Shown piece after piece: positions 53,035 to 59,031 of a stretch of 64,000 nt of DNA. The notes under the pieces are model-generated. The model ran no database searches. It was not told where the DNA came from and saw only the letters and a program-made list of their open reading frames with translations. The translations under genes were made by a program, and so were the position numbers. Each line of letters starts with the position of its first letter. The first letter of the stretch is position 1. Source of the stretch: an uncultured Candidatus Saccharibacteria bacterium (GTDB lineage: Bacteria > Patescibacteriota > Minisyncoccia > Phycocordibacterales > Zambryskibacteraceae); the NCBI GenBank assembly GCA_964642835.1, contig CAZXQA010000001.1, forward strand, positions 68,219-132,218. The letters run 5' to 3'.

Positions 53035-53118
53035 GCGTCGGTGGCGGAGTGGTCAATCGCACTAGACTGTAAATCTGGCGGCCTATGGCCTACGAAGGTT
53101 CGAATCCTTCCCGGCGCA
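53035..53118 (+). tRNA. tRNA-Tyr(GTA)
   Basis: Acceptor GCGTCGG/CCGGCGC (one G-U), D-arm GCGG-AGTGGTCAA-TCGC, anticodon loop CTGTAAA, long variable arm, T-loop TTCGAAT. The 3' end CCGGCGCACA recurs as the repeat core in the downstream island. Confidence 0.75.
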
Positions 53119-53120
53119 CA

Positions 53121-53187: not shown

Positions 53188-53209
53188 AGGCGCAGTTCGC
53201 GCAGGCGAA

Positions 53210-53364
53210 CGAGCCGGGGTCGCGCGAAAATTCAGCAGAATTTTATGCGTGACCGAAAGTGTACTCACGCCCCTGCCCGGCGCACAATGTTTGAAAATCA
53301 CTATTTTTAGAAGCCTTTGCGAGTATATCGTAAGGGCTTTTAAACTTAATTTGAGCCACATTTC
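53210..53364. repeat. direct repeat copy 1 (155 bp, identical to 56234..56388)
   Basis: Exact 155-bp match, contains CCCCTGCCCGGCGCACAATG (tRNA-Tyr 3'-end core). Imperfect similarity continues for ~30 more bp. Confidence 0.9.
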
Positions 53365-53959
53365 GTTCTTTGATGGAAAGGTTCCAAAGTAGATTTTCCA
53401 GGATTTCTTTCTTTCCGTTCTCGTCTTTCTCTAAAAACTCTTTTCTGGCTCTACTGCCTCGTAAAAATACTTCTTTAGTCGATTCCAAAGTAGCAGACGG
53501 CTCACGCTGTTTTAGCTCCTGAATCTGCTTGTTAAGGGAAACTCTCTGGTTCTGGATTTCTAGAACCTTCTGGTCATAGAGTTCTTTGGTAATCTGGCTA
53601 TCAAGGAAAGTATCAAGAAGCCTCTGCTCTCTCGTCTTAAGACCTCCCAGGGCGGTTTCCAGTTCTTTTATGGCCTTATCAAAGTAGCCGTTATCAGCCT
53701 GAAGCCTTTCCTTGGCGGCTTGGTACATAAGCTCGATCTTTCTCTCGGTAAAGTCTAGGTTTAGGAATAAATCGGCTACTTTAGGATAAAGGTAAGTTTC
53801 TCGAAGATAAGTCTTGTGTTCTTCACACTTCTGTTTGCCGTTAGTGCAGTAGTAATAATGGTGGCCTTTTTTAAGTGAAGCTGTTAATGAGCAACCGCAA
53901 GTCTCACATTTAAGGAACCCTCTTAATGAAAGAGATATTAGGAAGCGCTTTAATACCGC
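53243..53959 (-). pseudogene. large serine recombinase, N-terminally truncated remnant (zinc-ribbon, coiled-coil and C-terminal parts only)
   Basis: The stop-to-stop frame gives ...RGFLKCETCGCSLTASLKKGHHYYYCTNGKQKCEE... (recombinase zinc beta-ribbon), then a coiled coil (KAIKELETALGGLKTREQRLLDTFLD...). It is bounded upstream by TAA at 53960-62, all three upstream frames are closed, and the catalytic resolvase domain is absent. Confidence 0.6.
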
Positions 53960-54132: not shown

Positions 54133-54594
54133 ATGACTTACGCACAGACGGATCGCAAGGCACCGGCCATCATGGCCGCCCTCGCAGTCGCACAGGTGTT
54201 TCGCAAGCAGGGGGAAGTCAAGGCGCGTCCGGCAACGGACGGCGAACAGATCGAGACGATTCTCGGAAGCGGCGTCAAGGAGACGACGAACTCCGCGAAG
54301 CTCGGCGACTGGATCATGACGAACCCGTCCGGCGAGCAGCACATCATCTCGGAGCAGAAGTTCTTCAGCCGCTACGAAGCGACGGAGGCCGAAGGCGTCT
54401 ATCGCGCCAAGGGCTTCTGCCGGGCGATCAAGAACCCGTTCAGCGAGCCGATCGAGATCATGGCGTCCTGGGGATCGCCGCAGACGGGCGACGAGAACTG
54501 CATGATCGCCGACACCTGCGACGAGAACGGTGAGAACATGGGCGGCGAGCCCTACCTCATCGACGGCGCCGCGTTCGCCGAGACCTACAAGTAG
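54133..54594 (+). CDS. hypothetical protein encoded by a strongly GC-rich foreign segment
   Basis: 153-aa ORF. GC content and G/C-ending codon usage are far above the surroundings. Preceded by a promoter and RBS, followed by a terminator. No family recognised. Confidence 0.45.
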   Translation: MTYAQTDRKAPAIMAALAVAQVFRKQGEVKARPATDGEQIETILGSGVKETTNSAKLGDWIMTNPSGEQHIISEQKFFSRYEATEAEGVYRAKGFCRAIKNPFSEPIEIMASWGSPQTGDENCMIADTCDENGENMGGEPYLIDGAAFAETYK

Positions 54595-54621
54595 ACAGTA
54601 CAACCGCTTACTGAGAAGACT

Positions 54622-54662
54622 GCCCACCGGGCAACACTTCTCGGTGGGCGGTTTTCTTTTTT
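54622..54662 (+). terminator. rho-independent terminator
   Basis: GCCCACCGggcaacacttctCGGTGGGC followed by GGTTTTCTTTTTT. Confidence 0.5.
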
Positions 54663-55134
54663 AATTCTCCCTTCGTGTTTTCTTAGCCTCGTTTTCTAGT
54701 CGAGAAATCCATTTTGTGTTTTCGGTTGAAACGAGTGCTTCCACTACACCCACAAGGATTCTTTTAGCCTCTTCATCATTTTTCCCTTCATACTGGCCAG
54801 TTCGGCCAAGGTAAGTATATTTTTCATGTCTCAATGCTTCGCAAGTAGCTCTGTATGCAATCCAATTTTGAGACCATTGATTTACATGTTGAAGCCCTTC
54901 GATAACAACTACAACAACACCTAAAAAACCAGTTATCTTGGGGAAGCTAGTTGCAATAAAGGGAATTAAAGCGGCACAAGTTATTTCTGCCAGCTTAGAT
55001 CGTTTATACCACCATTGTGCACTACCAGATTTTTTGTCGTACCAAGCTATCTGTTGCTCAAGCCTTGGGTATTTCGAATCTGGCTCTTGGTCAACATTTC
55101 CAGGGGTGATGGTTTTGCTGAAAATGTTTAACAT
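54661..55134 (-). CDS. SLATT-clan / DUF4231-like two-TM membrane protein (putative effector)
   Basis: 157 aa. EQQIAWYDKKSGSAQWWYKRSKL, then two TM helices (LAEITCAALIPFIATSF; ITGFLGVVVVVIEGL), then WSQNWIAYRATCEALRHEKYTYLGRTGQYEG. Fits the DUF4231 pattern (W..Y.kk...y.r...TM-TM...W..yR...E.L..E...Y..G...Y). AT-rich relative to the host. Start overlaps the stop of the upstream TIR gene (ATGTTAA). Confidence 0.55.
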   Translation of the reverse strand: MLNIFSKTITPGNVDQEPDSKYPRLEQQIAWYDKKSGSAQWWYKRSKLAEITCAALIPFIATSFPKITGFLGVVVVVIEGLQHVNQWSQNWIAYRATCEALRHEKYTYLGRTGQYEGKNDEEAKRILVGVVEALVSTENTKWISRLENEAKKTRREN

Positions 55135-55712
55135 CGGACTCTTACTTTACTTGCAATAGGGTGAGTCCTTTTCTCAAAAGCTCGCTCGATATAAGCATTG
55201 GGATCGGCAACAAAGTCGTCCCATTTTACGAGAACGCCGTATCGTTCATCTTCTGTGTGATGGCATTTGTCCTCGTGAATAAAATAGTTTCGATGAAATT
55301 CCTTGATAGTAGTACTGTCATTAACATATACAACACTAATCGGAGTACCGCATCCTCCGCAGGAAGAGGGTGATCCAAAGACACGGTCATACATCTTAGG
55401 GAGCACAATTCCAAGAATGCCGCTTCGAGGATTATTCTCTCCGTCGTAAAGAGAAGCTTGAAGCTCTCGTTTGATAAATTTTTGCTCATCCCACCCAAGA
55501 TTCTCTGCGCTGTTCTCTCCGATAAGGTGAAGTGTTACGGTTGAATCCGAGAGGTATTCCTCACGGATCTTTCGCATGATGTAATCCTCGTCATCTGAAT
55601 CAATAGCTTCGTCCAGAGACTTATCAATCATGTCGAGGCCGGGCATAGCTTGAATTGCCAGTTTGTACGCTAGATCCTCAGTTTTAAAAGATATAAAGCC
55701 TTTTCTCGCCAT
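55128..55712 (-). CDS. TIR-like domain protein, ThsB-like (DUF1863/MTH538 type)
   Basis: MARKGFISFKTEDLAYKLAIQ (beta-A VFISF..D) ... STVTLHLIGENSAENLGWDEQKFIKRELQAS ... GILGIVLP closely parallels the ThsB pattern (KRVFFSFHYQD ... VLIGSQTFNRRWVRYEI ... IIGI). C-terminal Cys/His cluster SSCGGCGTP...HEDKCHH. Confidence 0.6.
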   Translation of the reverse strand: MARKGFISFKTEDLAYKLAIQAMPGLDMIDKSLDEAIDSDDEDYIMRKIREEYLSDSTVTLHLIGENSAENLGWDEQKFIKRELQASLYDGENNPRSGILGIVLPKMYDRVFGSPSSCGGCGTPISVVYVNDSTTIKEFHRNYFIHEDKCHHTEDERYGVLVKWDDFVADPNAYIERAFEKRTHPIASKVRVRC

Positions 55713-55863
55713 GATGTTGAGTGGTTATTATTAGGTGGCTCTAAAATACCACAAATAAGCCGCTAAGTCTGCAAGCCTAGACTGGTTCCAACCTCGTACC
55801 AGACGGCGCACACTAGACTTTTTGTGTTTTCAATGTAAGGTGGTGTTCGGAAAGGAGAGAGTG

Positions 55864-56091
55864 ATGACTGAAACAACGCTTCTTGAAGAGTACGAATCCT
55901 ATGAAGGAACCTACCGCTTGGCGAGTCTTCCGAGCGGAGATCTTAAGGGGATCCTCTTCACTCTCATCAGCGACATGCGTTTAAGACCGGCGTTCGGTGG
56001 TCTCTGGGAGCAATTAAATCGAGCCAGCAAAGAAGACTGGCTTCAGAGGTGGCTGAAGGCCGTTTCTCATGCCCGCGAAGAGCCTGCGTAA
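55864..56091 (+). CDS. hypothetical protein
   Basis: Start at MTETTLL with GGAAAGGAGAGAG upstream. 75 aa. No family recognised. Confidence 0.3.
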   Translation: MTETTLLEEYESYEGTYRLASLPSGDLKGILFTLISDMRLRPAFGGLWEQLNRASKEDWLQRWLKAVSHAREEPA

Positions 56092-56233
56092 TGCAAGCTC
56101 AACGCGGGCTCTTCTATTTTAATACGGTTCCAACTTCGTACCAGACGGTGCACAGTATAAAAAATAACTCGTCTTGCACGGGTTATTTTTTATACTGCCG
56201 GAAAGTAGGTGAGAAAGGCGGAGGCCGACGGGC

Positions 56234-56388
56234 CGAGCCGGGGTCGCGCGAAAATTCAGCAGAATTTTATGCGTGACCGAAAGTGTACTCACGCCCCTGC
56301 CCGGCGCACAATGTTTGAAAATCACTATTTTTAGAAGCCTTTGCGAGTATATCGTAAGGGCTTTTAAACTTAATTTGAGCCACATTTC
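56234..56388. repeat. direct repeat copy 2 (155 bp, identical to 53210..53364)
   Basis: Exact copy. In the recombinase frame it again encodes the last ~50 codons of the serine recombinase, so it is a second recombinase 3' remnant. Confidence 0.9.
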
Positions 56389-56443
56389 CATATTTGAGAG
56401 AAAGGTTCCAATAAAGGCTTAATATTACATATAATTCTACATA

Positions 56444-57018: not shown

Positions 57019-57531
57019 ATGATCAAAGATGCCGATACTGAAGCTTTCTTCCTGAAGGCAATGCGTTCGGGCTATGCCGGCGGCGGTGTGGGGAAGACCA
57101 TGACTCTGCCGGACGTGAGGCCAAGCACCAAGGAGATCCGATATGTTCTTGGGGACTGGCTTCTCATCGACGAGTGGAACGTCAATCGGGATACGAACAA
57201 GTCCACTGGCGTGACACGCATCTGGCACGATGGCACACTCGTCTGGTGCATGAGTTATGGCGGGTATTACCCGGACTCTGTGACCAGATTCCTCAAGGTG
57301 GCACTTCGTCATCAGTACTCTTGTGAGGGCTCCTTCAAAGGTGGTCGTGGCCCCGTGCGATGCGTGGCTTCTGATCTTCTCTTTTCTGAAGAACCCGGTC
57401 TCGTCTACACGAACGAGTGCCACGGTAATTTTTGGCACTTCAGTGGCAAGGAAAGGATTTTTGCCCCACAGCTCCTCGCAGGCGATGCGGTGATCGGTTA
57501 CCACGATTACTGGGGCATGAGCCTTCTCTAG
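57019..57531 (+). CDS. hypothetical protein
   Basis: 170-aa soluble ORF (...GYAGGGVGKTMTLPD...). A terminator follows. No family assignable. Confidence 0.4.
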   Translation: MIKDADTEAFFLKAMRSGYAGGGVGKTMTLPDVRPSTKEIRYVLGDWLLIDEWNVNRDTNKSTGVTRIWHDGTLVWCMSYGGYYPDSVTRFLKVALRHQYSCEGSFKGGRGPVRCVASDLLFSEEPGLVYTNECHGNFWHFSGKERIFAPQLLAGDAVIGYHDYWGMSLL

Positions 57532-58957: not shown

Positions 58958-59028
58958 GGGCGATTAGTTTAATGGTAGAACAGCGGCCTCCAAATCCGCT
59001 GGTGGGGGTTCGATTCCCTCATCGCCCG
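58958..59028 (+). tRNA. tRNA-Trp(CCA)
   Basis: Acceptor GGGCGAT/ATCGCCC, D-arm GTTT-AATGGTA-GAAC, anticodon loop CTCCAAA (one C-U mismatch closing the stem), T-loop TTCGATT. Confidence 0.7.
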
Positions 59029-59031
59029 CCG

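Follow-up and report, generated by a model that had tools for sequence, protein, structure and literature searches.

A conserved gene neighborhood that joins a TIR-domain protein to a two-transmembrane (2TM) SLATT protein was first described in phages of Firmicutes, e.g., Streptococcus phage Javan281, and its SLATT component was predicted to be a membrane effector regulated by a derivative of ADP-ribose (ADPR; Iyer, Burroughs, Anantharaman, Aravind, 2022, Viruses 14:1977, PMC9503650). The same pair was named type VII Thoeris (ThsB-ThsH) in a preprint of December 2025 (Yirmiya et al., bioRxiv 10.64898/2025.12.03.692087), in which type VII operons gave phage defense in three of the six cases tested and several Bacillus systems did not defend a heterologous host. 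According to this preprint, type VII TIRs yield canonical cyclic ADP-ribose (cADPR) solely upon infection, and cells that carry the system are arrested by added cADPR, but not by 2′cADPR or 3′cADPR; cADPR is the signal to which two types, VII and VIII, respond, and type VI, in which ThsB is combined with ThsG/DUF6650, uses 2′cADPR. Here, we describe a TIR-SLATT gene pair at positions 54661-55712 of a 64,000-nucleotide stretch of DNA (hereafter, the window; all coordinates refer to it) from an uncultured Candidatus Saccharibacteria bacterium (assembly GCA_964642835.1, contig CAZXQA010000001.1, positions 68,219-132,218). The pair is very likely a TIR-signal-gated SLATT defense module of the type VII Thoeris kind, borne on a small, immobilized integrative island. 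A sequence-only reading of this DNA had proposed a Thoeris-like module in which an NAD+-derived product gates a membrane-disrupting SLATT protein, a mechanism since published for type VII, but it had also taken a TIR with a bare SLATT partner for an uncharacterized architecture; this architecture is already known, having been predicted in 2022 and named and validated in 2025, and the match to a named system makes the module real, not novel.

The two genes lie on the minus strand. The upstream thsB-like gene (55128-55712) encodes, from an ATG start, a 194-aa ThsB-type TIR protein with a C-terminal extension that carries a Cys cluster; the downstream thsH-like gene (54661-55134), also with an ATG start, encodes a 157-aa single-domain SLATT/DUF4231 protein with two transmembrane (TM) helices, a predicted membrane effector. 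The genes overlap by 7 nt (55128-55134, minus strand): at the junction, which reads CCGATGTTAAAC, the TIR stop codon TAA and the SLATT start codon ATG both fall within ATGTTAA, coupling the two genes translationally. Since the SLATT open reading frame (ORF) has no further in-frame ATG, GTG or TTG between this ATG and its conserved core, the overlap does not depend on the choice of start codon. Both ORFs are intact and full length; homology searches returned 2665 matches for the TIR and more than 188 for the SLATT protein and, judged by their sequences, both are genuine genes rather than chance ORFs. The features that had been read from the letters alone hold up in this respect: the same two co-directional ORFs are present in the ORF list, the ATGTTAA overlap can be read directly, every peptide string quoted for the two proteins is present in their translations, and the proposed identities, a ThsB-type TIR and a two-TM DUF4231/SLATT protein, are borne out by the searches described below.

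The TIR protein matches the Pfam family ThsB_TIR (PF08937; E = 2e-6, 28.5 bits, cutoff 21.2), the PADLOC ThsB model PDLC00428 (E = 1.8e-14, residues 1-184) and PHROG 13658 (E = 1e-67). Its AlphaFold2 (AF2) model has a predicted local distance difference test (pLDDT) score of 82.9, and the top structures retrieved with this model from the PDB by Foldseek are 9vyl (BdThsB1 with NAD; E = 1.7e-7), 8wcf (EcThsB), and a B. cereus TIR. A profile built from 35 TIR homologs also finds 9vyl among PDB sequences (E = 2e-8), in an alignment that includes the C-terminal extension with its CxxC motif. E83, within KRELQASL, is invariant in the 35 homologs, and its counterpart in 9vyl and other ThsB TIRs is the Glu of their WEI/YEI motif; by homology, E83 is the candidate catalytic Glu. 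In the same alignment, C118, C121, and C150 are invariant, and C159 is kept in more than 90% of the homologs; in the window TIR and its closest relative (P0125, 77% identical), C159 is replaced by Gly and, in these two sequences alone among the 35, position 146 is occupied by His instead of the consensus Pro. The Cys cluster is common to the whole TIR subfamily and is also found in the solved ThsB 9vyl; thus, the Cys/His cluster is family-wide and no peculiarity of the window locus. It is probably a structural metal-binding insertion, in which the C159-to-Gly change together with His146 may represent a swap of ligands at the presumed metal site.

The SLATT protein is recognized by DUF4231 (E = 4.3e-21) and SLATT_1 (28.7 bits, cutoff 26.3) in Pfam and by the NCBIfam SLATT_1 model NF033634 (E = 1.4e-30). 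Two adjacent hydrophobic segments (residues 48-64 and 65-82) and an all-helical AF2 model (pLDDT 90.5) with four long helices (23-60, 65-85, 87-109, and 120-156) reproduce the layout of the SLATT superfamily, in which two adjacent TM helices are flanked by conserved cytoplasmic helices, and the family motifs RLE.QI.WYD and YR.TCEAL.HEK are retained. No solved relative came up in the PDB, either with Foldseek or when its sequences were searched with a profile, and thus the structures support no inference on a pore.

How close is this protein to a validated ThsH? The comparator available to us is not a cloned effector itself but the SLATT encoded next to a near-identical relative of a validated TIR. 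The validated ThsB of B. licheniformis SCCB 37, from a system that makes cADPR and is intoxicated when cADPR is added, has a relative with 98% identity whose gene is overlapped by an upstream gene for a 150-aa SLATT_1/DUF4231 protein. This protein and the window SLATT have 40% identity over 126 aa (E = 1e-31) and the motifs RL..QI.WYD.KS, YR..CE.L.HEKY.YL, and S.EN..W in common. The window locus resembles type VII Thoeris in being a two-gene operon, mobile element- or defense island-borne, in which a ThsB-type TIR and a SLATT membrane effector are tightly overlapped, and the effector has the same single SLATT_1/DUF4231 architecture of about 150 aa; it differs in that its TIR, 194 aa long and with the Cys-cluster extension, is of a different subfamily, and in that the TIR gene precedes the SLATT gene, opposite to the order in Bacillus systems. 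Effector homology and operon architecture together place the window effector in the ThsH family, and the pair within the architectural definition of type VII.

The neighborhoods described in 2022 offer a further comparison. The TIRs of Javan281 (a satellite), its relatives, and Enterococcus phage IME197 are full-length homologs of the window TIR, with identities of 53-56%. In Javan281, a 4-nt overlap joins the TIR gene (product 54% identical, full length) to an unannotated ORF of 144 aa, which is matched by a hidden Markov model (HMM) of the window SLATT family (E = 7.5e-38); in IME197, the TIR (54% identical) adjoins an annotated DUF4231 gene whose product is 40% identical to the window SLATT. 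Unlike the window pair, these pairs reside in the lysogeny modules of Bacillota phages and satellites in the order SLATT-TIR, and their function there is predicted only.

The sequence-only reading had called for a search for the pair in other genomes. The SLATT-centered sample comprised 80 loci, out of 398 species genomes that encode a relative. A TIR-like ORF lies within 3 kb of the SLATT gene in 62 of these 80 genomes, and within 400 nt in 41, while the same search in 386 kb of the outer flanks of the 80 loci returned none; the count of 62 includes TIR_2-type proteins, and a phmmer screen that misses this type gave 22 of 80. In eight loci, from Saccharibacteria, Kaiserbacteria, Paceibacterota, Omnitrophota, and Acidobacteriota, the gene directly upstream encodes a TIR of the same 194-aa subfamily (60-68% identity); in another 14, this place is taken by a ThsB TIR of about 130 aa, with the type VII TIRs of the preprint as best matches. 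Viewed from the TIR side, the best 120 of the 2665 matches are 62-77% identical to the window protein; members at this level are spread over Patescibacteria, Bacillota, Bacteroidota, and Omnitrophota, and those of phages and satellites are 53-56% identical. Among 15 loci with TIRs 54-70% identical to that of the window (eight from genomes or metagenomes and seven on viral contigs), the partner is DUF4231/SLATT in ten and TPR-S/MAP3K_TRAF_bd in five (adjacent in four, about 1.6 kb away in one); one of the ten SLATT loci also has a TPR-S gene nearby.

The order of the genes is TIR-SLATT in the window, the Candidate Phyla Radiation (CPR), Omnitrophota, and Acidobacteriota, and SLATT-TIR in Bacillota and their phages; in either order, the homologous pairs overlap or are separated by at most 8 nt. 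Because the pairing is kept despite rearranged order, the linkage appears to be functional rather than accidental, and we conclude from these comparisons that TIR and SLATT are not paired by chance. The closest relatives of the pair are found mostly in CPR/Patescibacteria metagenome-assembled genomes (MAGs). One homologous pair (locus L115) has a type III restriction-modification-like methylase/helicase next to it, another (L118) is part of an element that also encodes an intact serine recombinase, Rep, and helix-turn-helix (HTH) proteins, and others belong to the lysogeny modules of temperate phages and satellites, where an Abi gene is adjacent. In one of the ten SLATT loci of the TIR-centered sample (MAG GCA_040961665.1; L120:3001-4075), a TIR-SLATT pair and a few small unannotated ORFs are inserted between the genes for ribosomal proteins S10 and L3, an unusual site for a defense module; the SLATT ORF was missed there by the gene caller.

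Other systems share one component with the window pair. SLATT effectors of CBASS (as listed in the preprint), of GTPase-centric conflict systems, and of DRT10/UG17 reverse transcriptase systems belong to the same two-TM superfamily and are predicted to form membrane-breaching assemblies once activated, but their partners are a CD-NTase, a GTPase, or a reverse transcriptase, whereas an association of the window family with a TIR is seen in at least 62 of 80 genomes. The island ORFs contain no SIR2-SLOG (ThsA) or Macro-TM domain of type I/II Thoeris. Type VIII, in which ThsB acts with ThsI ("CMP hydrolase and TPR") and cADPR, is approached by homologs of the window TIR (63-68% identity) that pair with TPR-S/MAP3K_TRAF_bd proteins, whose features agree with the account of ThsI in the preprint; a TPR-S gene is absent from the window. 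In two loci (L099:2048-4760 and L117:486-3588), a DUF4231/SLATT gene and a TPR-S/MAP3K_TRAF_bd gene both lie around a single TIR gene or a pair of them, an arrangement that agrees with the preprint, where mixed ThsH/ThsI operons are described.

Several findings weigh against a type VII assignment. (i) The SLATT protein is unmatched in PADLOC 2.0.0 (2023), a library older than Thoeris types V-XI. (ii) ThsH proteins are not uniform: the closest relatives (95% identical) of a validated Alteromonadales TIR, whose own scaffold was not found in the metagenome collection, are accompanied by a 290-aa tandem of SLATT_3 and SLATT_1, and this effector is only distantly related to the window SLATT (HMM E of about 1e-7; hhalign probability 41%). 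In favor of the assignment, TIRs 71% identical to the validated Alteromonadales TIR are found beside close homologs of the window SLATT (L102) or beside SLATT and TPR-S genes (L099). (iii) The window TIR matches the B. licheniformis-type type VII TIR only marginally (E = 0.01). (iv) Among the TIRs listed in the preprint, its nearest tested relatives are type VI proteins, those of E. coli S1 (35% identity, E = 9e-28) and ACN001 (32%), which are equal to it in length and align with it from end to end, Cys-rich extension included. (v) The loss of C159 may have altered the presumed metal site.

Does a type VI-like TIR make a type VI signal? The locus could be a hybrid of a type VI-like TIR and a type VII-like effector, in which the same two-gene signaling would run on 2′cADPR or another ADPR derivative and the SLATT protein would be tuned to that molecule. 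Besides the full-length likeness to the E. coli S1 and ACN001 TIRs, this reading draws on the clustering given for them in the preprint: both are listed in cluster 2741407742 with a type VI TIR from a Gammaproteobacteria scaffold, for which intoxication specifically by 2′cADPR is recorded. The signal of type VI itself may vary, as two of its five TIRs (which two is not stated) gave no detectable 2′cADPR and the authors allow for a different one, and TIR clusters are common to different effector types. However, an identity of 35% between TIRs is insufficient to transfer product specificity, the window SLATT retains the conserved motifs of a cADPR-type ThsH, to which it has 40% identity, and the effector of type VI is not found where it would be expected: all 15 close homologs of the window TIR are partnered by SLATT or TPR-S, none by DUF6650, which is also absent from the precomputed Pfam annotations of the eight genomic loci. 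We consider such a hybrid unlikely and, given that the close TIR homologs pair with effectors of the two cADPR-responsive classes, we lean with modest confidence toward canonical (N1) cADPR as the signal. A bolder version of the alternative, in which the 194-aa Cys-cluster subfamily as a whole yields a signal other than canonical cADPR and its Cys insertion maybe serves as an infection sensor, strikes us as a long shot; the conserved Cys3(+Cys/His) insertion might conceivably be such a putative infection-sensing element.

The mechanism that we favor for the window pair follows the validated systems. By analogy to these, phage infection would activate the ThsB-type TIR, which would convert NAD+ into a cyclic ADP-ribose signal, with canonical (N1) cADPR the most probable form. 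This molecule is expected to bind the cytoplasmic helices of the SLATT protein, which would then oligomerize and breach the inner membrane, and the resulting growth arrest or cell death would come before the release of phage progeny (abortive infection).

Many bacterial TIRs, including those of CBASS, Pycsar, SPARTA, and AVAST systems, are effectors that deplete NAD+. The window TIR could be one of them, in which case the SLATT protein would be independent of it, or a membrane-associated sensor or partner, rather than a ligand-gated pore. SPARTA TIRs do appear among the weaker structural matches of the window model, and the preprint itself names such a role as a caveat for unverified configurations, yet the top matches in sequence as well as in structure are ThsB proteins, and validated TIR-SLATT systems produce cADPR only upon infection. 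Furthermore, cADPR supplied from outside is toxic to cells that carry the system, which places SLATT downstream of the signal, and a single TIR subfamily exchanges two unrelated effector classes, SLATT and TPR-S, as would be expected of a signal producer. On this evidence, an NADase effector is very improbable.

The pair lies in an island that had been noted for its AT-rich genes, its tRNA-Tyr, and a decayed serine recombinase, all of which are confirmed. GC content is 0.40-0.445 across the pair vs. 0.53-0.58 in the flanking genes (ClpB region), and the left edge is marked by a tRNA-Tyr (GTA) gene (53035-53119, plus strand) that both ARAGORN and Rfam identify. Next to it lies a remnant of a large serine recombinase (53243-53959, minus strand; translated from the stop-free frame), of which only the zinc ribbon (Zn_ribbon_recom, PF13408; E = 3.9e-6, 27.6 bits, cutoff 25.3) and the coiled-coil C-terminus are left; the N-terminal resolvase and recombinase catalytic domains are absent. 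A direct repeat of 178-182 nt, which the sequence-only reading had not mentioned, brackets the region: its left copy (53207-53388) holds the 3′ end of the recombinase remnant, about 48 codons, and the right copy (56231-56412), 3024 bp away, is 97% identical. The 3024-bp unit between the repeats contains the recombinase remnant, an ORF for a PGDYG-domain protein, the SLATT and TIR genes, and a small divergent ORF. From these features, the island appears to be a small integrative element that is now immobilized.

On such a decaying island, the pair might be an inactive relic, or it might mainly serve the mobile element, through addiction or superinfection exclusion, instead of defending the host. 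This reading draws on the truncated recombinase, the loss of the near-invariant C159, the usual carriage of the pair by mobile genetic elements, phages, and satellites, and the tested Bacillus type VII systems that failed to defend a heterologous host. But both window ORFs are full length, uninterrupted, and still coupled, and all invariant family columns are kept (E83, C118, C121, and C150 in the TIR; RLE.QI.WYD and YR.TCEAL.HEK in the SLATT). C159G is shared with the 77%-identical relative and is therefore no private lesion, and exclusion by a phage-borne module would use the same mechanism as host defense. We regard a relic or element-serving module as improbable, and a TIR-signal-gated defense module as the better description of the pair.

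The remaining features of the island are of less certain meaning. The direct repeat begins ~90 nt past the tRNA-Tyr, contains no tRNA sequence, and has an identical hairpin with a 17-bp stem in each copy; it may be the relic of a tandem insertion or the product of recombination between two elements. A circular form of the island was considered in view of a 2929-bp Logan contig (L001) and rejected: the contig ends inside both repeat copies, as an assembly break at the repeat would. Likewise, a match of the recombinase C-terminus to Tad5, a Thoeris inhibitor (Pfam E = 0.015-0.03, 15-16 bits, cutoff 27), was dismissed as coiled-coil noise. The PGDYG-domain ORF (54133-54594, plus strand; 153 aa; PF14083, E = 1.1e-10) converges on the pair; its GC content of 0.63 stands out within an island of 0.42, and it is overlapped by an antisense ORF of 166 aa. 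L039 (Saccharibacteria) and L118 have copies with 71-73% identity at the equivalent place, and the TIR-SLATT-PGDYG block there has 67% DNA identity to the window over 1.6 kb. The ORF could be an accessory gene, a regulator, or independent cargo; like the recombinase remnant, it is unmatched in PADLOC 2.0.0.

Between the convergent SLATT and PGDYG genes, a terminator scan found a hairpin with a 19-bp stem (54613-54658) and a T-run on the plus strand, which probably ends transcription there. A scan for sigma-70 promoters gave nothing beyond the expectation from shuffled sequence, with no candidate in front of the TIR gene, and an Rfam scan of the window found tRNAs and no rRNA. Divergent from the TIR gene is a small ORF of uncertain status (55822-56091, plus strand; 89 aa, or 75 aa from the second ATG) that matches no Pfam or PHROG family and otherwise occurs only in the identical contig L001. 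Beyond the right repeat, a DUF5680-domain ORF (57019-57531, plus strand; E = 8.8e-6) and, along with it, several small ORFs that match no family extend toward a tRNA-Trp (58958-59030) at a GC content near that of the host; they may be further island cargo.

Two variants stand out among the loci of SLATT relatives, both in Acidobacteriota. In ten loci (L031:5345-7524, from an Acidobacteriaceae MAG; L036, L037, L040, L046, L052, L069, L070, L075, and L077), a gene for a phage-type lysozyme (PF00959, E down to 2e-47) lies 50-160 nt upstream of a SLATT gene whose product is 47-51% identical to that of the window. The conserved start of the lysozyme, MGVNNLTYG, shows no obvious sign of a signal peptide, and a TIR_2 gene is present within 3 kb in all nine of the lysozyme loci that are not cut by a contig end. 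These loci look like a three-gene variant, TIR, SLATT, and lysozyme, in which SLATT would be the holin-like partner of an endolysin; lysozyme is not mentioned in the type VII preprint. In four others (L019:4338-5861, L022, L028, and L042), a fusion protein of ~500 aa, with TIR_2 at the N-terminus and TonB_C at the C-terminus, is encoded 125-143 nt upstream of SLATT; this TIR partner, linked to the membrane or periplasm, differs from the small ThsB proteins.

What does the window add to a known architecture? It contributes a type VII member with a TIR of a subfamily outside the validated examples; what novelty is left resides in the signal specificity and the Cys cluster of this subfamily. The locus presents a clean, intact pathway from a TIR to a membrane effector on a 3-kb island, in what appears to be a CPR/Patescibacteria-like bacterium, a kind of host where such systems have been little studied. 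The large and very conserved TIR subfamily, which swaps SLATT for TPR-S, offers a test case for whether the class of the effector predicts the signal of the TIR; should the signal turn out to be other than canonical cADPR, SLATT effectors would not be bound to one ligand.

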